This document shows, in pieces, positions 5,610 to 17,555 of a stretch of DNA of 64,000 nt. The position numbers and the translations under genes were made by a program. Origin of the DNA: an uncultured delta proteobacterium (GTDB taxonomy: Bacteria > Myxococcota_A > Polyangia > Polyangiales > Polyangiaceae); NCBI GenBank assembly GCA_963763745.1, contig CAVXQJ010000016.1, positions 513,029 to 577,028 on the forward strand, written 5' to 3'. Below the pieces are notes generated by a model, which searched no databases, had not been told where the DNA came from, and was given only the letters and a program-made list of their open reading frames with translations. The stretch's first letter is position 1; each line of letters starts with the position of its first letter.

Positions 5610-8075
5610 TCATCGACCGCGCGGCGGCGGAGGCTGCGCGTTCAGCGGATCCTCCGGCCACGCGTGCCGCGGATACTTCCGCATCAGCTCGCGTCGCAGC
5701 TTCGGGTAGTGACGCTCCCAGAAACCGGCGAGGTCCGTCGTGACTTGCACGGCGCGGTGGTTCGGCGCGAGCAAGTGGAGGACGAGCGCGACGCGTCCGC
5801 CGCCGATGCGCGGCGTGTCGCGCAGGCCGAAGAAATCTTGAAGGCGTGATTCGACGTAGGGATCTTTTCCGGGCTCGTACGCAACGCGCGCGACGCGGCC
5901 GCTCGGGAGCGTGACGCGCGCGGGGGCGAGGCGATCGAGCGCGGCATGATCGATCGACGCGCGCACGAGATCGGCGACGCCCGCTTCGCGAAGCTCGGCG
6001 AAGCTCGCGCGGCCGTCGCAGCACGCGCGAAGCGCATTTTCGATCGCCGCATCATCGACGAGCGCGACGGACGCATCGACGCGATGCGCGAACGCGGCGC
6101 GCTCGCGCACGGAGTCGAGATCGCTCGCGTTCGACGGCGTGAACGCCGCCGCGCCGCGCTCCTTCGCGGCAGCGAACAAAAGCGCGCTCGCTGTTTCGCC
6201 CGCTGCGGCGGCGCGCGTCTCTTCGATCGCGAGCCCGTCGAAGCGAAGACGCGTGACGCGCTCGGCGCGCTCGGCTTGCGCGTTCCACTCGTCGCGTGTC
6301 TCTTCATCGAGTCGCTCGGGCGCGATCTCGACGAGCTGCTCCGGCGTCACTTCGCTCACGATGCGCGCCAAGACCGAGCTCCCGCGCTGCTCGACGTCGA
6401 CGACCACCATGAGCGGCGCGTCGCGCACGACGCTCGTCTCGGCGAGCTCCGCCTTTCCACCCGCGAGCGCGAGCGAACGCCCAGAAAGCCGCCGCGCCAC
6501 GCGATCCGTGTATCCTGCAAGTATCGCCGCGAGCAGCGCGTCCTCCGCCGCCTTCTCCGAGAGCCGCTGCTTCTCTCGAACGAGCCGGCGCAGTTGTTTG
6601 CGCGCGAGCTCGACGCGCCTCACCGCGCCGCGATCCACGTCTGTCATGTCGTGGAGGCTGTCCATCATCGCGAGCACGTCGGAGCGATCCGTCGGGAGGT
6701 CCGCCGCGCGAACGTGCTGGCCGGGGCGCATGCGCGTTGCGAGTCGGATGTCGCGTTCGCCGAGGAGCGCGGCGGCGGTGACTGCGTCGTCCGCGACGCC
6801 GCGCGCGATGCCTTCGACGACGACGCGCGCGACGCGCGGGTGAAGTGGAAGACGGATCATCGCGCGTCCGATGTCGGTGAGGCGCGGGTCGATCGCACCG
6901 AGTCGTGCGAGCAGATCCTCCGCCGCGGCGATCGCTTTTTGTGGTGGCGCGTCGAGCCACGCAAGCTCCTTCGGGTCGATCCCGTTCGCGCGAAGCTCGA
7001 GAACGACCTCGGCGAGATCGGCGCGGAGAAGCTCGGGTGTTTCGTGCTCCGGGCGCGCTTCGAAGTCCGCGCGCGAGTACAGACGAAACGCGCGTCCTTC
7101 ACGCGTGCGACCCGCGCGGCCGGCGCGCTGCACGCACGACGCGCGCGACGCCTTCTCGACGCGAAGCGACGGAAGCCCCGTGTACGGCGAATGCTCCGCG
7201 CGCCGCACGAGCCCGCTGTCGACCACGCATGCGACGCCGTCGATCGTCACGCTCGACTCGGCCACGTTCGTCGACACGATCACTTTGCGATCGCGCGACG
7301 GGAGCACGGCGCGATCCTGTTCGTCGGGTGGCAGGTCCCCGTGGAGCGGAAGAACGATCGCGCCGTGCTTCTGCGCGGCGCTCGCGCACGCGTCCATCGC
7401 GCGGCGGATCTCCGCTGCGCCCGGCAAGAAGACGAGCACGTGACCGTCCGTCTCTTCTGCGAGCGCGCGCCTCACCGCGGATGCGACGCGAAGCTCGAGG
7501 ACGCGATCATCGGGTGCGTCTTCATACGCGACGCTGACGGAATACGGACGCCCCGCGGAGCGCACGATCGGCGCGCCCAAGAACTTCGCGATGGGCTCCG
7601 CGTCGAGCGTCGCGGACATCGCGACGATGACGAGATCGCGCCGCGTCGTCTCTCGCAGCCGCTTGATTCGCGCGAGCGCAACATCGGTGTGCACGCTTCG
7701 TTCGTGGATCTCGTCGAGCACGATCGCCGACACGTTCTTCAAATCCGGATCGCTCGACAGCATTCGACCGAGCACGCCTTCGGTCACGAAGACGAGACGC
7801 GTGCGCTCGCCGCGCGCTTCTTCGAATCGCACGACGTACCCGACGCTCTCGCCGACTCTTTCGCCGCGCTCCTCCGCGACGCGACGCGCCGCCATGCGCG
7901 CTGCGATCCGCCGCGGCTCGAGCACGATGACGTCGCGTTCGAGCGCATCGAGAAGCATCGGCGGGACGCGCGTCGTCTTCCCCGCGCCCGGCGGCGCTTC
8001 GAGCACGCACGCACCCGCGCGCGCGATCGCATCGCGCACCTCACTGAGCACGTCGTCGATCGGAAGCGGCTTCAC
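5610..8075 (-). CDS. hrpB: ATP-dependent RNA helicase HrpB (DEAH-box)
   Basis: 821 aa; Walker A PPGAGKTT, DEIH box, HA2 and HrpB C-terminal region. Confidence 0.9.
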   Translation of the reverse strand: MKPLPIDDVLSEVRDAIARAGACVLEAPPGAGKTTRVPPMLLDALERDVIVLEPRRIAARMAARRVAEERGERVGESVGYVVRFEEARGERTRLVFVTEGVLGRMLSSDPDLKNVSAIVLDEIHERSVHTDVALARIKRLRETTRRDLVIVAMSATLDAEPIAKFLGAPIVRSAGRPYSVSVAYEDAPDDRVLELRVASAVRRALAEETDGHVLVFLPGAAEIRRAMDACASAAQKHGAIVLPLHGDLPPDEQDRAVLPSRDRKVIVSTNVAESSVTIDGVACVVDSGLVRRAEHSPYTGLPSLRVEKASRASCVQRAGRAGRTREGRAFRLYSRADFEARPEHETPELLRADLAEVVLELRANGIDPKELAWLDAPPQKAIAAAEDLLARLGAIDPRLTDIGRAMIRLPLHPRVARVVVEGIARGVADDAVTAAALLGERDIRLATRMRPGQHVRAADLPTDRSDVLAMMDSLHDMTDVDRGAVRRVELARKQLRRLVREKQRLSEKAAEDALLAAILAGYTDRVARRLSGRSLALAGGKAELAETSVVRDAPLMVVVDVEQRGSSVLARIVSEVTPEQLVEIAPERLDEETRDEWNAQAERAERVTRLRFDGLAIEETRAAAAGETASALLFAAAKERGAAAFTPSNASDLDSVRERAAFAHRVDASVALVDDAAIENALRACCDGRASFAELREAGVADLVRASIDHAALDRLAPARVTLPSGRVARVAYEPGKDPYVESRLQDFFGLRDTPRIGGGRVALVLHLLAPNHRAVQVTTDLAGFWERHYPKLRRELMRKYPRHAWPEDPLNAQPPPPRGR

Positions 8076-8139: not shown

Positions 8140-8140
<1 letters not shown>
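8078..8140 (-). terminator. Rho-independent terminator-like hairpin; repeat family 3 copy 1 (approximate coordinates)
   Basis: Perfect 14-bp inverted repeat gaaggtcagaagaa / ttcttctgaccttc with 6-nt loop, followed on minus strand by a CUUUUG tract; lies directly 3' of the Q-rich gene. Confidence 0.5.
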
Positions 8141-9039
<899 letters not shown>

Positions 9040-9181
9040 GTGGGCGATCTCCTGTTTTGCGCGGCCTGAGCCGCCGTCTTTCGCGCGGGAAAGTGTCGCA
9101 GGTTTCTCGCAGAAGTGAAAGACCGCAAAATAAGGCAAAAACAGGGCGAAAACGGCATGTTTGTGCGAAAACGTTCATCGC

Positions 9182-10195
9182 ATGGAACTCGCGACGTGCA
9201 CGACGCTCGGGCTCGGTGGCGAGGCGCGAAGGCTCATCGAGGCGCGCGACGAGCGCACATTGATCGACACGGTGCGCGAGTGTGACGCGCGCGGCGAGCC
9301 GGTGTTCGTTCTCGGCGGTGGAAGCAACGTCGTCTTCGCCGACGAAGGATTCGATGGAACGATCGTGCGCGTCGCGACGCGCGGCATCGTGATCGGCGAC
9401 GGAGTGATCGACGTCGCGGCGGGCGAGCCGTGGGACGATCTCGTTTCGTGGATGGTGACGAGTGGCCTCGCGGGCACGGAGTGCATGTCGGGCATTCCCG
9501 GTCTCGTCGGCGCGACGCCGATGCAGAACGTCGGCGCGTACGGACAAGAAGTGAAGGACACGCTCCGCGAAGTGCGCGTGTGGGATCGTCAGAGCGCGCG
9601 CATGATGGCGCTCTCGCGCGAAGCATGCCGACTCTCGTATCGCCACAGCATGCTCAAGGAGACCGCGTCGCGATGGATCGTCTTGCGCGTCGCTTTCTCC
9701 GCGTCGAAATCATTGCAGAGTGCACCCATTCGGTATGCCGAGCTCGCGCGAGCTCTCGGCGTGAAGGAAGGCGACACGGCGCCGCTCGCGCGCGTTCGCG
9801 AAACCGTGATCGCGCTGCGAAGAGCGAAGGGCATGGTCCTCGATCCGAACGACGCGGACACGAAGAGCGCGGGTTCGTTCTTCGTGAACCCGACGATGGA
9901 CGAAGCGGCGTACGAAGCGCTCTCCGCGCGCGCGAACGAAAAGGTGCCGCGGTTTCAAGACGGCGATCGCGTGAAGGTGCCGGCAGCGTGGCTCATCGAG
10001 CGCGCGGGGTTTGCGAAGGGGACGGCGCGCGGGGCTGCGGCGATTTCGACGAAGCATGCGCTCGCGATCACCAATCGTGGCGGGGCGACGACGAAGGAAG
10101 TGATGGAGCTCGCACGCGCGGTGAGGGATGGGGTGGAGGGGAAATTTGGCGTGCGGCTCGAGGTGGAGCCGGTTTTGGTGGGGTGTTCGATTTGA
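9182..10195 (+). CDS. murB: UDP-N-acetylenolpyruvoylglucosamine reductase
   Basis: FAD-binding N-terminus (FVLGGGSNVVF) and MurB C-terminal domain; start chosen at MELATCTTLG. Confidence 0.9.
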   Translation: MELATCTTLGLGGEARRLIEARDERTLIDTVRECDARGEPVFVLGGGSNVVFADEGFDGTIVRVATRGIVIGDGVIDVAAGEPWDDLVSWMVTSGLAGTECMSGIPGLVGATPMQNVGAYGQEVKDTLREVRVWDRQSARMMALSREACRLSYRHSMLKETASRWIVLRVAFSASKSLQSAPIRYAELARALGVKEGDTAPLARVRETVIALRRAKGMVLDPNDADTKSAGSFFVNPTMDEAAYEALSARANEKVPRFQDGDRVKVPAAWLIERAGFAKGTARGAAAISTKHALAITNRGGATTKEVMELARAVRDGVEGKFGVRLEVEPVLVGCSI

Positions 10196-10403: not shown

Positions 10404-10526
10404 GGGCTGTCGTGTGATTGCACGCCAAACGCGAAAGATTCCTGCCAGCGCCGAGTGAGCAGCGAGTCGTGATTGCGCTGTCATGAATCTTTCGCTGGGG
10501 ATTGGCATGCAATCACACGACAGCCC
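10404..10526. repeat. Palindromic hairpin element family 2, copy 1; overlaps start of DUF559 gene (approximate)
   Basis: Arms gggctgtcgtgtgattg...gcgaaagattcctgccagcgc and gcgctgtcatgaatctttcgc...caatcacacgacagccc are reverse complements; second copy at 11.2 kb. Confidence 0.65.
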
Positions 10527-10863
10527 TTCTCAGTTCTTTCTCATCCAACGTGCGCGCGAGATGCGGCGTGAGCCGACTCGGAGCGAAGCTTTGCTCTGGG
10601 CGCAGATTCGCGGGCGCAAGCTCGGCGCTCGCTTTCGCCGGCAGGCTCCGCTCGATCGCTACATCGTCGATTTCTACGCGCCGTGCCACCGGCTCGTCGT
10701 CGAAGTCGATGGCGCAATTCACGATTCGCGAATCGAAGCCGATGCGATTCGCCAACGCGAAATCCAAGCGCTCTTCGGCGTTCGCTTCATTCGCATTCGC
10801 GCAGAGCTCGTCGAGCGCGACGTGCGCGCCGCCGTCCAGCTCGTTCGCGCCGCGCTCATATGA
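10483..10863 (+). CDS. DUF559 (Vsr-like endonuclease fold) domain protein, paralog 1
   Basis: RSEALLW...FRRQAPLDRYIVDFYAP...VVEVDGAIH matches the DUF559 signature; N-terminal 17 codons lie in the family-2 hairpin. Confidence 0.7.
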   Translation: MNLSLGIGMQSHDSPSQFFLIQRAREMRREPTRSEALLWAQIRGRKLGARFRRQAPLDRYIVDFYAPCHRLVVEVDGAIHDSRIEADAIRQREIQALFGVRFIRIRAELVERDVRAAVQLVRAALI

Positions 10864-11242
10864 GCGCCGCGCAGATGATGTCGAGTGCGGCTTGGATGTC
10901 GCGCTCGACGAGGTCGGACGAGATTCGGAGAACGCGGACGCCGTAGAGACGAGCAAGCTCAGCGTCGCGCCGCGCATCGCGCTCGCGTTGCTCCGCGTGA
11001 ATGCCACCGTCGACTTCGATGACGAGCTTGTAAGAAGCAACGAAGAAGTCCGCGATGAACGGATGAAGCGGATGCTGCCGCCGAACGCGAACGCCGAGCT
11101 GTTTGCCGCAAACGCGGCGCCAAAGCAGCGCCTCGCTTCGTGTCGGAGCTTTGCGCATCTCGCGAGCGCGTTGCGTGATTGAGAAGAGCGAAGGGCTGTC
11201 GTGTGATTGGTCGTGCATGCCAACTACGAGCGAAAGATTCAT
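10856..11242 (-). CDS. DUF559 domain protein, paralog 2 (convergent, 3' ends overlap by 8 nt)
   Basis: MNLSLVVGMHDQSHDSPS...RSEALLW...RRQHPLHPFIADFFVASYKLVIEVDGGIH; N-terminus is nucleotide-identical to the paralog over about 50 bp, the rest diverged at DNA level but conserved as protein. Confidence 0.7.
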   Translation of the reverse strand: MNLSLVVGMHDQSHDSPSLFSITQRAREMRKAPTRSEALLWRRVCGKQLGVRVRRQHPLHPFIADFFVASYKLVIEVDGGIHAEQRERDARRDAELARLYGVRVLRISSDLVERDIQAALDIICAALI

Positions 11243-11327
11243 GACAGCGCACTCACGCCTCGCTGCTCACTCTGCGCTGGCAGGAATCTTTCGCGTTCGG
11301 CGTGCACGACCAATCACACGACAGCCC
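11193..11327. repeat. Palindromic hairpin element family 2, copy 2 (inverted relative to copy 1; approximate)
   Basis: gggctgtcgtgtgattgg...cgaaagattcatgacagcgc / gcgctggcaggaatctttcgc...caatcacacgacagccc. Confidence 0.65.
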
Positions 11328-11385: not shown

Positions 11386-11473
11386 ATTTCGGCGAAGCCG
11401 AAATATGAGGGGGCGCCAACACGCGCAGGCTCGAAACTTCCGCCTCACGCGTCTCGTGCGTGAAGTTTCGAGC
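11386..11473 (-). terminator. Two tandem hairpins at the 3' end of the radical-SAM operon (approximate)
   Basis: atttcggc-gaa-gccgaaat palindrome and gctcgaaacttc...gaagtttcgagc 12-bp stem with 21-nt loop spanning the rSAM stop codon at 11445. Confidence 0.3.
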
Positions 11474-12593
11474 CGAGCATGTTGGCGGGGGGAGAGAGAA
11501 GCAGAAGCAACAAACCGCACAACGCGCGGACACTCCGGATCCCCCCATCCCCCGCACCCAAAAACCGCGAAACCGCCTTGCACCCGCCACGACACACGTC
11601 GCGCAAGGCACACGCATCACACGGCGCGCTCGTCCCGTGCGCCGCCACTTCACCCGGCTCCAAAAAACTGCACGGCGCGCTTCGCCCATCGGAGCGCACC
11701 GCGGACAGCGCCGCGCCCGCTTCGCAACCGAAGACGCCGAGCGCGCGCAAGTCGGCCGCGCGATCGTAGAGCGCGTCGGAGAGGAGCGCGACCATCGCGC
11801 AGTCGATGCGGAGGCGAAAACCCGATGCGTGCATTCTGCACACGATGTGCTCGATCGCCTCTCCCAGCGACGCGACTTGTTCGCGCGTGAGACGCTTCGC
11901 GAGGTAGTCGAGCTTCGCAGCGCGGCCAGCCGGTTTGTATCGGAGGAGCTGCGCTTCGCGCGCGCCGAGATCGCGAGCGCGCGCGATCGTGTCGCCCAGC
12001 GCGGGGAAGCTCTGGCGCGTGAGGACGACGTTGACGCCGAACGGGACGTTCGCTTCGTGGAGGAGTCGCATCGCGCGCTCGGCGACGCGCGCGCCGGGGA
12101 ACGCGCGGACGGAGCGATACACTTCGTCCTCGCCGTCGTAGCTCACGTTGACTTGCGCGAACGCGCCGAGCGCGCGTGCCTTGTCGCGCGTCATGCCGAC
12201 GCCGCTCGTCGTGACGACGGGGATGAGGCTGTGTGCGCGCGCTCTCTTTGCGAGCTCGCCGAGGTCGTCGCGAAGGAGCGGCTCGCCGCCGCCGAACGCA
12301 ACCGTGAAGACGCCGCTCTGCGCGAGCGCTTCGAGCGTACGTTCGAGCGCGTCGCGTTCGACGTGCGCGCCATCGGGGCGCGCATCGAGATAACAACCTT
12401 CGCATCCGACGTGACACTGCGACGTGACCGCGACGTGCGCCTCGAGCGGCGCGCTCTTCGTGATCGCGATGTCGCGCCACGCATCGCCGCCGTCGATTCC
12501 AATCTTGCGCGCACCTTCGCGATCGAGCGCGACGAGCGCCGCGGGCTCATCGACCCGCACCCATGCCCCCCAACTCTCGATGCGCGTCCTCAC
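11445..12593 (-). CDS. Radical SAM enzyme with C-terminal SPASM domain (peptide-modifying maturase-like)
   Basis: CHVGCEGC (CxxxCxxC) radical-SAM cluster motif and C-terminal CDACALRDVCRGGC (Cx2Cx5Cx3C) SPASM motif. Start set at GTG 12593 because it overlaps the upstream peptide stop as GTGA; the long 645-aa ORF upstream of this point is Arg-rich off-frame junk overlapping two real genes. Confidence 0.75.
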   Translation of the reverse strand: MRTRIESWGAWVRVDEPAALVALDREGARKIGIDGGDAWRDIAITKSAPLEAHVAVTSQCHVGCEGCYLDARPDGAHVERDALERTLEALAQSGVFTVAFGGGEPLLRDDLGELAKRARAHSLIPVVTTSGVGMTRDKARALGAFAQVNVSYDGEDEVYRSVRAFPGARVAERAMRLLHEANVPFGVNVVLTRQSFPALGDTIARARDLGAREAQLLRYKPAGRAAKLDYLAKRLTREQVASLGEAIEHIVCRMHASGFRLRIDCAMVALLSDALYDRAADLRALGVFGCEAGAALSAVRSDGRSAPCSFLEPGEVAAHGTSAPCDACALRDVCRGGCKAVSRFLGAGDGGIRSVRALCGLLLLLLSPPANMLGSKLHARDA

Positions 12594-12829
12594 GACTCCG
12601 TCTCCGTCCCCGACTCCGACGCCGTCCCCGTCTCCGTTCCCGACCCCGACTCCGACTCCGTCTCCGCCTTCGCCGCGACGATCGCCGCGCACGCCGCGGC
12701 CACGATCGCACCCGCCGCGATCTGCGCGATGAACAGCGTGTCGATCACGCTCCCGATGCTCGAACAGTTCGCGCCGTGCCCTTCGCGCACGACGACGACG
12801 TGGTCTTCGAGCTCTTTCGGGTCGCTCAT
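12590..12829 (-). CDS. 79-aa small protein: hydrophobic helix plus C-terminal (E/G/A)(T/S) dipeptide-repeat tail; candidate substrate/precursor of the adjacent radical-SAM enzyme
   Basis: MSDPKELEDHVVVVREGHGANCSSIGSVIDTLFIAQIAAGAIVAAACAAIVAAKAETESESGSGTETGTASESGTETES; ATG overlaps the upstream gene stop (ATGA) and its stop overlaps the rSAM GTG (GTGA); about 90% G/C at codon third positions in this frame. Confidence 0.55.
   Translation of the reverse strand: MSDPKELEDHVVVVREGHGANCSSIGSVIDTLFIAQIAAGAIVAAACAAIVAAKAETESESGSGTETGTASESGTETES
12596..12675. repeat. Imperfect hexanucleotide microsatellite (GACTCC/GTCTCC/GTCCCC)n of about 13 units (approximate)
   Basis: Read on minus strand it encodes the ET/ES/GT tail of the small peptide; the -1 frame gives GD/GV repeats; a related (GGGGAC/GGAGAC)n tract encodes the (GD)n C-terminus of HflX at about 27393-27445. 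Confidence 0.6.
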
Positions 12830-13803
12830 AGGCCGAAGCTCTCGAGGTATCGGACGTCGATGCCATAGAGGACGATGAACGCGGCAGACGCAACGGCGGC
12901 GACGGAGACGATCGCGCGACCGACGCGCGCGGCGCGGGTGTGCGCGCCCGCGAGACCCCATGCGCGTGCGACGAGGATGATGGGGAACATCGCGGCGGGG
13001 AGCGCCAAGAATGGCGTCGCGTGCCCGCGCTCGTACGCCGTCGCGAGGACCGCGGCGAATGTTGCAAGATACACGCAAATGAGGGCGGCTTTTGGCGCGA
13101 ATCGGAGCATCGATCGCGCGCTCGCGCCGCGGAGCTTTCGAGCGCTCGCGGCGATGCCGAGCACGCCAAAGACGACGAGCACCCCGATCGACGCGCGAAA
13201 CACGAAGCGACGACGCGTCCACCGCGCGACGCGAGCGACGAGATCGGGCGCGCTCTTGCCCGCGCGGGCGGCGGCGTGCTTCGCGGCGGTCGCGTCGCCG
13301 CGTTCCGTCGCGAGGTCGACGAGGCGCGACGCGGCTTGCGCGCGGAGCGGCACGTCGCTCTTCGGCTCGTCGAGGAGCGCATCGAGCTCGCGCTCCGCGT
13401 CGGCGGGTCGCGCGAGCTTCGACGCGTAGCTCTCGGCGACGAACATGCGCGCCTCGGTACGCACTTCGCCCGGCGGGAACGCTTCGAGATCGCGCGCGAG
13501 CCCGTCGACGAGCGCGGCGTTCGCTTGCGCGTTCGGATCGCGGCGTGCGCGTTCGAGCTTCACGAGCGGCGCGAAGTCGCCTTCGGATCGATCATGCAGC
13601 CAGCGCGCGCGCGCCGAGGAGCGGAGCGCCCAGCGATTCGACGGATCCGTTTGGATCGATGCTTCGTAGTGCGCGAGCGCGCTCGCGAAATCGAGATCGC
13701 GCTCTTCTTGCTCGGCCGCCGCGTAGAGACGCTCCGCCTCGGCGCGTGATGACGAGTCGCTCGATGCGACGGCGATGGCGCCAAAGAGAATGAGCGCGGT
13801 CAC
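12826..13803 (-). CDS. Membrane protein with N-terminal signal peptide, periplasmic TPR-like region and C-terminal multi-TM domain
   Basis: MTALILFGAIAVASS signal; helical TPR-like segment (ALAHYEASIQTDPSNRWAL...); 4 predicted TM helices at C-terminus; first gene of the coupled three-gene unit. Confidence 0.6.
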   Translation of the reverse strand: MTALILFGAIAVASSDSSSRAEAERLYAAAEQEERDLDFASALAHYEASIQTDPSNRWALRSSARARWLHDRSEGDFAPLVKLERARRDPNAQANAALVDGLARDLEAFPPGEVRTEARMFVAESYASKLARPADAERELDALLDEPKSDVPLRAQAASRLVDLATERGDATAAKHAAARAGKSAPDLVARVARWTRRRFVFRASIGVLVVFGVLGIAASARKLRGASARSMLRFAPKAALICVYLATFAAVLATAYERGHATPFLALPAAMFPIILVARAWGLAGAHTRAARVGRAIVSVAAVASAAFIVLYGIDVRYLESFGL

Positions 13804-15682: not shown

Positions 15683-16300
15683 TCAAGCCGAGGAGCTGAT
15701 CAGCGCAGCGCGGATGGTGCGCGCGAGGAGCTCCGTCGCAGCCGAAGGCGACAGCTGCATCGCGTAACGCATCGTGTCCCACGTGCGACCGTGCGAGAGG
15801 AGATCGAGCGTATCGAGGAGCTCGCGGCGCGACTCGCTCGCGTCGAGCTCTTCGGCGAACACTTGCTCCACCTCGCGACGACGGCGCTGCCACGCTTCGT
15901 CCGTCGCGCGTCCGATCGCGGTCGAACCGGTCTTTGGCGTCGCACCGACGACGGATGCCGCGCGCCGCACCGGCGAGCAAAACTCGAGCTCGCGCCCGCG
16001 CGCTTCGGCGAACGCATTCACGCGTTGATCGAGCGTGAGTCGCGCGTCGACGTACGCCTTCATCGGCCCGACGCGCCGCGCGTGCTCCTCGACCGCCGCG
16101 ACGAACAAGTCCTCGCGCGAAGGAAAATGCTGACGAATCGATCGCACGGCGACGCTCGCGCGCTTCGCGATCTGACCTGCCGTCGGCGCGAGGTTCCCTT
16201 CCTCGATCAAGTCGATGAGCGACGCGACGATCGCCTTGTGCGTACGCGCGGACCGCTCGCGCCGGCCGTCCCGTCTCTCGAGCGCTCGCTGCGGAAGCAT
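15683..16300 (-). CDS. TetR/AcrR-family transcriptional regulator
   Basis: N-terminal HTH (AGQIAKRASVAVRSIRQHFPSREDLF) typical of TetR family; about 200 aa. Confidence 0.8.
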   Translation of the reverse strand: MLPQRALERRDGRRERSARTHKAIVASLIDLIEEGNLAPTAGQIAKRASVAVRSIRQHFPSREDLFVAAVEEHARRVGPMKAYVDARLTLDQRVNAFAEARGRELEFCSPVRRAASVVGATPKTGSTAIGRATDEAWQRRRREVEQVFAEELDASESRRELLDTLDLLSHGRTWDTMRYAMQLSPSAATELLARTIRAALISSSA

Positions 16301-16314
16301 TCACATGAGGGGTA

Positions 16315-16734
16315 TCACGGAGTGACGGTGAGCGTTCCGTGCATCGTCATGTAGTGGCCGGGGAACGTGCAGATGTAAGGATACGTTCCGGCCGCTGGGG
16401 CGGTGAACGTCACCTCGACTTGTCCACCGGGCTGGCTGAGGCCCGTGTGCGCGAGGACGTCGGCGCTGCCCTTCGGAACGTAGCCGGCCGCTTCGCCCGC
16501 CGTCATTCCCGCCGTCGCGACCTCGGCTTCTTTGCCCGGGCTGACGAGCACCCAGTTGTGCTTCATCGCCTGGGACGTCGCGTGGTTCGTCAAGACGACG
16601 TGCACCGTCTGACCGCTCTTCACGGTGAATGCGGTCTTGTCGTACGCCATCGTCTCGCCGACCGTGCCGAGGTTGATCTCGGCGGTGCCTTTGCACGCCG
16701 TCACGAGCGCGAGACACGCGATGAGCTTTTTCAT
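16315..16734 (-). CDS. Azurin-like blue-copper protein (cupredoxin) with lipoprotein signal
   Basis: Trimmed from ORF 16315..17526 to MKKLIACLALVTAC; copper-ligand motifs HNWVL and CTFPGHYMTMHG as in azurin. Confidence 0.8.
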   Translation of the reverse strand: MKKLIACLALVTACKGTAEINLGTVGETMAYDKTAFTVKSGQTVHVVLTNHATSQAMKHNWVLVSPGKEAEVATAGMTAGEAAGYVPKGSADVLAHTGLSQPGGQVEVTFTAPAAGTYPYICTFPGHYMTMHGTLTVTP

Positions 16735-16796
16735 GCCCCGGTTGTGCCGCCGCGAAGCGCGCAGGTCAAGTCGAAATATATGGGATCCCATACATC

Positions 16797-17555
16797 TCAA
16801 CGCAGTTGAAATGCCCCGATCACGTCGGCGCGCTTCACGGGTCCGCCGTGGCCCAAGTAGAAGGTCTGAACGCCGAGATCGAGGAGCGCCTGGATGTTCT
16901 TTCGGTTCTGCGCGGGGTCGGCTTGATAGAGGTGCTCGCCGGGCGAGTGTGGAAAGAAGAGCCCGCCGAGCGCACCGCCCGCGATCATGTCGCCGACGAA
17001 CGCGGTGTGATCGGCGAGCAAGATGACGATCGATCCGGGCGTGTGGCCCGGCATCTCGATCACTTTTCCGGCGATGCCCCACGGCGCGAGATCGATCGCG
17101 TCGTTCGGACGCACGATGATGTCCGGCACGAGCTCGGGGTATTCGGTCGTGAGAAATGGCTTGAGCACGGCGCCCGTGAAGCCAGTCGGTTTGAGATCGT
17201 CGTCGTGACCTGCCGCGGCGAGCGAAAAATCGCCGAGGCCGAGCATGACCTTCGCTCCGGCGAGCCTTTGGATGTCGGCTGCGAGACCGGCGTGATCGGC
17301 GTGGCCGTGCGTCACGACGACGAGCCCGACCGAGCTCCTCGCGACGCCGCGCTCGGCGAGCGCCGCCGCGAGATCGTCCATGTCGCCGAGAGTCCCCGAA
17401 TCGACGAGCACGGGATGCCGCGTGCGAATCATGAACACGTTCGAGAGACGCAGCGGGATTTGGACGATCTCCGCGGACCCACCACTGGTGAGGGGCGCCT
17501 TCCCGACGACGGTGGGTCCGGCGCAAGCGAAGAGGAGAGGGAACAGGAAGATCAA
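16797..17555 (-). CDS. Metallo-beta-lactamase-fold hydrolase (likely exported); start uncertain
   Basis: VTHGHADHAG HxHxDH motif; trimmed from ORF 16797..18539; only in-frame ATG is at 17432 (MIRTRHP) but a conserved beta-strand plus LLFACAG lipobox precede it; possible TTG start at 17555 lies inside repeat family 3 copy 2. Confidence 0.55.
   Translation of the reverse strand: MIFLFPLLFACAGPTVVGKAPLTSGGSAEIVQIPLRLSNVFMIRTRHPVLVDSGTLGDMDDLAAALAERGVARSSVGLVVVTHGHADHAGLAADIQRLAGAKVMLGLGDFSLAAAGHDDDLKPTGFTGAVLKPFLTTEYPELVPDIIVRPNDAIDLAPWGIAGKVIEMPGHTPGSIVILLADHTAFVGDMIAGGALGGLFFPHSPGEHLYQADPAQNRKNIQALLDLGVQTFYLGHGGPVKRADVIGAFQLR

Follow-up and report, generated by a model that had tools for sequence, protein, structure and literature searches.

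The 64,000-nucleotide stretch analysed here (the window) comes from an uncultured member of the Polyangiaceae (contig CAVXQJ010000016.1 of the assembly GCA_963763745.1) and carries on its minus strand three translationally coupled genes, which encode a membrane protein related to tetratricopeptide-repeat (TPR) proteins, a small membrane protein and a radical S-adenosylmethionine (rSAM) enzyme of the SPASM type. The best explanation of this unit is a Polyangia-specific system of peptide or protein maturation, not a cluster for a diffusible natural product. The target of the enzyme is probably an invariant cysteine-containing motif of the small protein rather than its repetitive tail. Taking the small protein as the candidate substrate is supported by the coupling of the genes, by their co-inheritance seen from both sides, by the fusions of the two proteins in two divergent lineages and by the invariance of the motif.

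The coupled genes and the small protein

An earlier note on this DNA, drawn from the letters alone, had described the three genes as chained by 4-nt overlaps, and comparison with relatives bears this out: the genes are co-inherited and translationally coupled. In the window, the stop codon of the membrane-protein gene overlaps the ATG of the small open reading frame (ORF) within ATGA (ggcctATGAgcgac), and the stop codon of the small ORF overlaps the GTG of the rSAM gene within GTGA (gagtcGTGAggacg); overlaps of the form (A/G/T)TGA recur at the two junctions of about 38 of 40 genome loci. The coding nature of the small ORF, proposed in the same note, is confirmed by its conservation in relatives and by its GC content, which equals 0.61, 0.55 and 0.91 at codon positions 1, 2 and 3. 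The frame with the best third-position GC (GC3) changes exactly at the borders of this ORF, GC3 being 0.82 in the membrane-protein gene and 0.80 in the rSAM gene. By these measures, the small ORF is a genuine, translated and conserved gene, and the public record (NCBI/ENA) holds identical products of 325, 79 and 382 amino acids (aa). Neither Rfam matches nor sigma-70-like promoters were found in the region.

The unit was found in more than 100 loci, and every named one belongs to Polyangia (Labilithrix and metagenome-assembled genomes (MAGs) of Polyangiaceae), to which it is restricted as far as seen. A peptide-side scan of one genome per species with two exact peptide patterns gave 45 loci, all of Polyangiaceae, Polyangiales, Labilithrix or “Myxococcales” MAGs; the cultured organism Labilithrix luteola also carries the system, with its small-protein and rSAM genes at 5753-6004 and 6001-7158 of L003. 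The enzyme-side retrieval yielded 80 metagenome loci, and the system is abundant in soil and peat metagenomes. In nearly all loci with enough flanking sequence (tblastn), the same order recurs: a divergent lipoprotein gene, the genes of the membrane protein, the small protein and the rSAM enzyme, and a convergent murB. Among the metagenome loci, the small ORF stands directly upstream of the rSAM gene in 64 of the 68 with room for it (with single motif substitutions in three), and the membrane protein was found in 44 of 45, the lipoprotein in 33 of 35 and the convergent downstream murB in 33 of 37. This order is kept at just 37–55% identity of the locus proteins to those of the window, and C-S-S-x-G of the small protein is invariant among loci whose enzymes are only about 50% identical. 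Such synteny across divergent Polyangia genomes indicates a conserved chromosomal unit of one lineage. Thus, the search for the peptide–rSAM–membrane protein triad in relatives confirmed its synteny across Polyangia, and the proposal that the cluster lies in accessory DNA had to be abandoned; the adjoining repeats belong to a window-specific insertion of DUF559 genes.

The conserved part of the small protein follows a variable acidic N-terminal end and has the alignment consensus V-R-x-G-H-G-A-N-C-S-S-(I/V)-G-S-V-(I/V)-D-T-L-F. C-S-S-x-G is invariant in all 372 collected family proteins, and 360 of them contain ANCSS.GS, the other 12 deviating at one or two motif positions only. The peptide has a single invariant cysteine, Cys22. 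Distant family members have Pro, Tyr or Arg in place of His18, and position 30 is occupied by Asp in 372 and by Glu in 9 of 381 members, with no other residue found. The 103 distinct DNA variants of the 20-codon motif have entropies of 0.29, 0.16 and 0.98 bits at codon positions 1, 2 and 3; synonymous codons are freely used in the motif, and the Ser24 codon alternates between AGC and TCN. Since the variation falls mainly at third codon positions, it points to purifying selection at the protein level.

Directly C-terminal to the motif, there is a 21-residue helix rich in Ala, Gly and Val, with A48 invariant in the alignments, and the tail beyond it has no positional conservation. In the window, the small protein ends in AETESESGSGTETGTASESGTETES, and the tail DNA is a period-6 tandem repeat of 11.8 copies (12596-12666), the final tail codons including the GGAG ribosome-binding sequence of the rSAM start. 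The earlier note had taken the repeated Thr-Glu and Ser-Glu pairs for the targets of the enzyme. They turned out to lie in the least conserved part of the protein: close relatives have SE, TE or SD repeats, locus L013 has DANA repeats, and the tails of the Labilithrix-like clade are Pro/Arg-rich, E-x-V-R-V-V-G being followed there by a Pro/acidic sequence, while in locus L008 the tail is entirely deleted. To judge from these comparisons, the tail is a fast-evolving hexanucleotide repeat of the slippage type, that is, the part of the small protein unheld by selection. Because it is dispensable, specific recognition by a soluble enzyme must go through the conserved N-terminal part.

Relatives of the small protein are numerous: a word-indexed search returned 153, a query spanning the junction of the small protein and the N-terminal domain of the enzyme returned 626, and a profile search of 1.84 billion representatives gave 283 clusters at 50% identity, nearly all of 55–140 aa. 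The small protein matches no Pfam or NCBIfam family, and the earlier view that the precursor is a new one therefore holds with respect to these curated collections. Two other assignments were considered for its N-terminal half and rejected. A cleavable signal peptide is at odds with a hydrophobic stretch that begins at residue 33, behind the acidic N-region, and a lipobox at Cys22 with the Asn that occupies position -1 in G-A-N-C.

The flanks of the helix are strongly asymmetric. Within 15 aa, the mean number of Lys/Arg residues is 0.08 on the N-terminal and 2.5 on the C-terminal side (381 members), 94% of the members having more of them on the C-terminal side; the hydrophobic stretch has a median length of 21 aa. 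By the positive-inside rule, a flank rich in Lys/Arg stays in the cytoplasm, and therefore an N-out/C-in topology is predicted, which would leave the tail inside the cell and put the invariant motif at the periplasmic face. This prediction is consistent with the membrane-displayed product that was envisaged in the earlier note.

The fusions agree with the predicted C-in topology. In L008, the small ORF is in frame with a complete rSAM gene (...CAAMRDEP-MRIRYEPFGAWVKL...), a 4-aa linker remaining between them, and the loss of the tail is due to a real deletion; in P0357, which represents a divergent branch, seven residues link the transmembrane (TM) helix to the enzyme. Further read-throughs (L019, L036, P0266 and P0320) were left uncounted because of other frame errors in those sequences, and the enumeration of fusions with the junction-spanning query returned unfused small proteins plus one frameshifted read-through (P0320), nothing else. 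A different arrangement is seen at L030 (5297-6225), where a 232-aa paralogue of the membrane protein is ATGA-coupled to a paralogue of the small protein with an intact motif and no rSAM gene follows. L030 lies in the same genome as the full locus L010, which fits an enzyme able to act in trans.

The enzyme, its membrane partners and the neighbouring genes

The enzyme belongs to the radical SAM superfamily by its match to PF04055 (54.4 bits against a cut-off of 29.5), Radical_SAM and Fer4_12 being its only Pfam matches. Both cysteine motifs reported in the earlier note, CxxxCxxC and Cx2Cx5Cx3C, are present as C60/C64/C67 and C325/C328/C334/C338. The whole SPASM pattern reads C290-x12-G-x4-C308 ... 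C325-x2-C328-x5-C334-x3-C338, with C265 upstream, and eight cysteines of this region are conserved among homologues. This is the cysteine pattern of SPASM enzymes, and the binding of two auxiliary [4Fe-4S] clusters is predicted from it. The score of PF13186 (SPASM) for the Labilithrix homologue is 17.0 bits, short of the required 21.5, and this model has no match in the window protein or in P0006, which is compensated by the structural matches to SPASM enzymes.

The best NCBIfam scores (MftC 81.3, NirJ2 71, nif11-maturase-3 67, GeoRSP 66 and PqqE 64.6 bits) stand against cut-offs of 265–725. As its scores fall far short of the cut-offs of all curated models tested, the enzyme is not a member of those families, and as judged by these models it is outside every curated family. 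The earlier note had named anSME and QueE as families whose membership would place the substrate elsewhere; the enzyme falls outside both, as well as outside NirJ/AhbD, MftC and PqqE. The “heme biosynthesis” label of the Labilithrix homologue was also rejected, since the NirJ/AhbC/AhbD models give 57–71 bits against cut-offs of at least 500. In four distant rSAM copies (P0002, P0047, P0068 and P0113), a C-terminal T-(S/R)-T-G-S-G-x-S-x-T-P-N extends beyond the last SPASM cysteine; this extension is missing from most family members.

The AlphaFold2 (AF2) model built from 73 homologues has a mean predicted local distance difference test score (pLDDT) of 83.6. Ahead of the rSAM core, it contains a 45-residue domain with strands at E2-5, E9-15 and E18-24 and helices at H25-30 and H36-40 (pLDDT 85–94), all of them within residues 1-40. 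The conservation of this domain equals that of the catalytic core: R4, E6, G9, W11 and G32 are invariant in the 73 sequences, and D24 and R29 are conserved in at least 90%. A role as a peptide-docking module is possible. Foldseek ranks SuiB first (E 2.8e-13, TM-score 0.68), followed by SkfB, anSME, BlsE (a non-peptide enzyme), viperin and PqqE. The top two structural matches are thus peptide maturases, and lipid and small-molecule enzymes follow closely, the lipid enzyme GDGT-MAS being a close match too. In sequence, too, SkfB ranks among the best PDB matches.

The TPR label given to the membrane protein in the earlier note is upheld at the level of the family: the family profile matches the consensus TPR with E=1.5e-11 (one clear repeat, profile positions 7-45) and Pfam TPR families match 6 of the 37 members, but the window protein by itself has no Pfam match above threshold. 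The signal-peptide-like N-termini of the family, the TPR repeat and the four C-terminal TM helices with Lys/Arg-rich alternate loops suggest that the TPR domain is periplasmic. The most conserved element of the TM region, Y-E-x-G-x-A-x-P-F, is in a predicted periplasmic loop.

In most relatives, the rSAM gene is followed by a fourth coupled gene, ORF4, which codes for a protein of about 103 aa with three TM helices. Of the 105 loci with room for ORF4, 81 have it (e.g., L003, 7155-7475, and L008, 7326-7640), and in 82 of 86 cases a 4-nt overlap joins its start to the stop of the rSAM gene. ORF4 belongs to no Pfam family and is found neither in the whole 64-kb window nor in L001 and L002. Its conserved loop, P-x-P-A-x-V-x-x-S-x-H-A-G-Y-F-W-R, is predicted to be periplasmic. 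The divergently transcribed lipoprotein is a possible periplasmic partner: FG-GAP_3 matches 17 of 31 members, and the alignment (A4) has a lipobox, invariant cysteines and, behind the lipobox, an invariant N-terminal G-C-x-G-C-K-(N/D)-x-H-P-Y-V-P-Y. The conserved features of all membrane partners would thus gather at the outer face, where the motif of the small protein is predicted. The lipoprotein has nine conserved cysteines besides the lipidated one, an odd number that leaves one potentially unpaired.

The DUF559 genes inserted in the window between the rSAM gene and murB have a Vsr-like endonuclease fold and are 57% identical to each other. The insertion is bounded by 93-nt inverted repeats (91% complementary), has a GC content of 0.61–0.64 versus 0.68–0.72 for the operon and looks like a small mobile or duplicated element; in L001, which is without it, murB begins 31 nt after the rSAM gene. 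The coordinates of the locus are collected in the table.

Features of the locus in the window (positions of the 64,000-nt stretch)
Feature	Position	Strand	Remarks
Membrane protein, 325 aa	12826-13803	minus	signal-peptide-like N-terminus, helical domain of ~190 aa with at least one TPR repeat, four TM helices
Small protein, 79 aa	12590-12829	minus	variable acidic N-end, invariant motif, one TM helix, low-complexity tail
Conserved core V14-F33, VREGHGANCSSIGSVIDTLF	12731-12790	minus	candidate modification site
Cys22 codon, TGT	12764-12766	minus	
Hydrophobic helix F33-A53	12671-12733	minus	single TM span; small-residue face A41, A44, A48 conserved
Tail K54-S79, (E/G/A)(T/S) dipeptide repeats	12593-12670	minus	predicted cytoplasmic low-complexity linker
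rSAM/SPASM enzyme, 382 aa as annotated	11445-12593	minus	GTG start
N-terminal 45-residue domain of the enzyme	12459-12593	minus	three strands and two helices
C60-x3-C64-x2-C67	12393-12416	minus	radical-SAM [4Fe-4S] ligands, invariant in homologues
SPASM cysteines C265, C290, C308, C325, C328, C334, C338	11580-11801	minus	invariant in 73 homologues
G6 run (11541-11546), then out-of-frame codons G-D-P-E-C-P-R-V-V	11518-11546	minus	
Two DUF559 genes	10419-11306	tail-to-tail, inverted	window-specific insertion between the rSAM gene and murB
murB	9161-10195	plus	conserved convergent neighbour; directly abuts the 3' end of the operon in relatives
Lipoprotein, 616 aa	13832-15682	plus	divergent conserved neighbour; FG-GAP-like repeats, many conserved cysteines

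The window's own rSAM copy carries a 1-nt frameshift at the G6 run, which takes the eighth conserved SPASM cysteine out of the annotated product and turns its final ~30 residues into an unrelated out-of-frame read-through. All 15 other sequences of the alignment (A2) have ...GPDPECPRVV at this place, and the lost motif is still readable in the other frame of the window: GGWGDPECPRVV. Real decay of this copy, with the fourth gene lost, DUF559 elements inserted on the 3' side and the enzyme impaired in its host, would account for the shift itself, for the lack of ORF4 anywhere in the window and for the insertion that separates the rSAM gene from murB. We consider it improbable. The shift falls in a homopolymer, and L005, from another MAG, is garbled across the same stretch, which makes an assembly error likelier than decay; moreover, the remainder of the window enzyme retains all invariant residues and its high GC3, and L001 and L002 are also without ORF4, yet their rSAM genes are intact. 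Probably, the frameshift is a homopolymer assembly error, and the question of decay is in any case independent of the function of the family.

Several other ORFs are seen around the locus. One at 8140-9138 (minus) encodes a repeat protein rich in Gln, Pro, Gly and Tyr (PQQQGYPQQ...), whose C-terminal region has several TM spans, and long spurious ORFs cover the same repeats on the opposite strand and in other frames. A TetR-family regulator (15683-16300, minus) stands beside the lipoprotein gene and is conserved in close relatives only. The ORF at 16315-17526 (minus) has a cupredoxin-like C-terminal sequence (...YICTFPGHYMTMHG...).

Proposed maturation and other readings

We suppose that the cytoplasmic rSAM/SPASM enzyme would recognise the N-terminal part of the co-translated small protein, its N-terminal strand-helix domain perhaps docking the V-x-V-V-R strand. 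The 5'-deoxyadenosyl radical would be used on the invariant G-A-N-C-S-S-x-G-S-x-x-D/E motif in the cytoplasm, in coupling with translation. The likeliest chemistry is a guess: a thioether or related cross-link centred on Cys22 may be favoured because cross-links of this type are the commonest SPASM chemistry. The Asp/Glu at i to i+8 from Cys22 would be one candidate acceptor, as only these two residues vary at position 30 and as SkfB makes a Cys thioether of the i to i+8 type. The modified N-tail would then be inserted N-out, the motif ending at the periplasmic face beside the TM helix; under YidC-type insertion, the translocation of a short net-acidic N-tail is plausible. The mature small protein could assemble with the TPR-4TM protein, with ORF4 where it is encoded, as in most relatives, and possibly also with the FG-GAP lipoprotein, while the repeat tail would serve merely as a flexible cytoplasmic linker.

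Four elements of this scheme are ones that we infer: the role of the small protein as substrate, the type of chemistry, the sequence in which modification and insertion follow each other, and the formation of a complex. The proposition that the Cys motif is modified by the enzyme ahead of membrane insertion, a subunit of an envelope complex being matured in this way, is, in our judgement, evenly balanced. More tentatively, one can suggest that the modified motif, whether as a cross-linked loop, a metal site or a cofactor derived from the protein, might form the periplasmic functional heart of a Polyangia-specific envelope complex (TPR-4TM, 3-TM and FG-GAP lipoprotein). If so, chemistry of the kind that yields RiPPs (ribosomally synthesised peptides with post-translational modifications) would serve a conserved housekeeping membrane protein, not a secreted natural product.

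A number of points weigh against the proposed maturation. It is read from the genomic context, and an operon coding for three membrane proteins would be equally expected of a membrane enzyme complex with a non-peptide substrate. The predicted topology puts the motif and the enzyme on opposite sides of the membrane, and thus the modification would have to come before translocation of the N-tail. The single-sequence model of the L008 fusion has a pLDDT of 39.9, the N-terminal domain of the enzyme has no match to PqqD or an RiPP recognition element (RRE) by sequence (Pfam, PDB sequences), and no protease or transporter/exporter family was recognised in the membrane protein, ORF4, the lipoprotein or the flanking genes. 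In L072/L073 (2470-5179) and in L078, the rSAM gene is directly behind the membrane-protein gene with no small ORF between them (L072 and L073 appear to be one sequence, which leaves two distinct small-less loci), and the rSAM gene of L080 (2210-3364) is an orphan between lipoprotein-like and acetolactate-synthase-like genes.

The main competitor is a membrane enzyme complex in which the small protein, the TPR-4TM protein and ORF4, as structural or regulatory subunits, hold the rSAM enzyme at the inner membrane face and which acts on another protein, a lipid or a precursor of the envelope. The small protein would then be a split-off N-terminal anchor, and its motif a periplasmic interaction or metal-binding site. 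The N-out/C-in prediction and the fusions with linkers of 4-7 residues do resemble an N-terminally anchored cytoplasmic enzyme, as many as three membrane proteins are translationally coupled to it, and the conserved loops of these partners would be periplasmic. The intact rSAM genes of the loci without a small gene, the structural closeness of GDGT-MAS and the conserved neighbourhood of murB point in the same direction. However, where the two proteins are unfused, as in most loci, the small protein exposes to the cytoplasm only its non-conserved tail, which offers a soluble enzyme nothing specific to grip; an invariant run of G/A/N/C/S, in a system whose other parts are down to 40-50% identity, is characteristic of sites for modification or cofactors, not of interfaces; the best structural relatives are peptide maturases; and no gene for an alternative substrate was identified. 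On balance, we regard a membrane complex of this kind as doubtful. Still less can be said for an accessory RiPP cluster, in which the (E/G/A)(T/S) tail would be a multi-site core, cross-linked by the rSAM enzyme and exported. Close relatives do have S/T-E/D repeat tails, and the tail is predicted in the same compartment as the enzyme, but its sequence and composition vary (DANA in L013, Pro/Arg-rich in the Labilithrix-like clade, deleted in L008), with the enzyme conserved whatever the tail type. The tail is, besides, a slippage-type repeat of hexanucleotides, with which the ribosome-binding site of the rSAM gene overlaps, the locus is syntenic throughout the lineage rather than accessory, and neither an exporter nor a protease was recognised; such a cluster is very improbable.

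The proposed maturation of the small protein at its motif deserves attention, as rSAM/SPASM enzymes with short peptides have been a repeated source of new chemistry and cofactors, and none of the four to five proteins of the system is covered by a Pfam or NCBIfam family. The layout is unusual: an invariant, membrane-anchored candidate substrate, predicted to be N-out and occasionally fused to the enzyme, at a conserved locus by murB. A modified motif would make the system a rare instance in which a resident membrane protein undergoes RiPP-type maturation, with a new precursor family and a single site, Cys22; if the motif is unmodified, we would deal with a membrane-tethered radical enzyme acting on some envelope substrate.

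Likeness to known systems

We found no literature description of this small-protein/rSAM system. It shares with rSAM peptide-maturation systems in general a short gene that is adjacent to and co-inherited with the maturase. With anSME, the enzyme has a structural match only: the small protein has C-S-S-I-G, without the P/A-x-R of (C/S)-x-(P/A)-x-R, and there is no sulfatase in the neighbourhood. NirJ/AhbD have the rSAM/SPASM fold in common with it (57-71 bits), and the neighbourhood contains no tetrapyrrole genes. The StsB-family model of sactipeptide/ranthipeptide maturases gives 62 bits versus 625.

The nearest NCBIfam models are those of MftC (TIGR03962, 81.3 bits versus at least 265) and PqqE (TIGR02109, 64.6 bits versus at least 381), PqqE being a good structural match as well. 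As in MftA and PqqA, the candidate core is invariant, not hypervariable. However, no MftA/MftB neighbours and no pqq genes were found nearby, the locus has neither a chaperone gene of the MftB/PqqD type nor downstream cofactor-processing enzymes, and the motif is N-terminal to the TM helix, unlike the C-terminal Gly-Val-Tyr or the E-x3-Y of these precursors. The rare natural fusions (L008 and P0357), which join the candidate substrate to the enzyme, recall borosins, i.e., RiPPs whose core peptide is part of the modifying enzyme (OphMA). In contrast to OphMA, which is a methyltransferase, the enzyme here belongs to another class, the peptide is N-terminal with a TM helix between it and the enzyme, and the two are normally unfused.

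Closer parallels are provided by SuiB/StrB (streptide) and SkfB (sporulation killing factor), RiPP maturases of the rSAM/SPASM or twitch type, in which the enzyme is also encoded beside a short substrate gene; SuiB and SkfB, like the window enzyme, have an N-terminal extension ahead of the rSAM core. SkfB joins Cys4 to Met12 of SkfA by an i to i+8 thioether, and this spacing is the same as that of Cys22 and Asp30. Nevertheless, the window enzyme is just 15-17% identical to SuiB and SkfB and reaches no NCBIfam model of their families; its N-terminal domain has 45 residues, not the ~100 of a full RRE, and no PqqD-like sequence signal. Their substrates are variable secreted peptides, whereas the candidate substrate here is invariant, membrane-anchored and encoded at a conserved chromosomal locus, without a protease or an ABC exporter.

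We regard QhpD/QhpC as the closest functional analogy. The SPASM enzyme QhpD forms Cys-Asp/Glu thioethers in the small conserved protein QhpC, which becomes the gamma subunit of quinohemoprotein amine dehydrogenase, a periplasmic complex with a beta-propeller protein. The likeness is drawn as an analogy: dehydrogenase, cytochrome and exporter genes are missing from our locus, and the small protein differs from QhpC in having one conserved Cys and a TM anchor. Nevertheless, the Polyangia system would resemble this pair in its combination of an invariant Cys with an Asp/Glu residue, of a small conserved protein as the candidate target and of an FG-GAP (propeller-type) lipoprotein encoded next to it.

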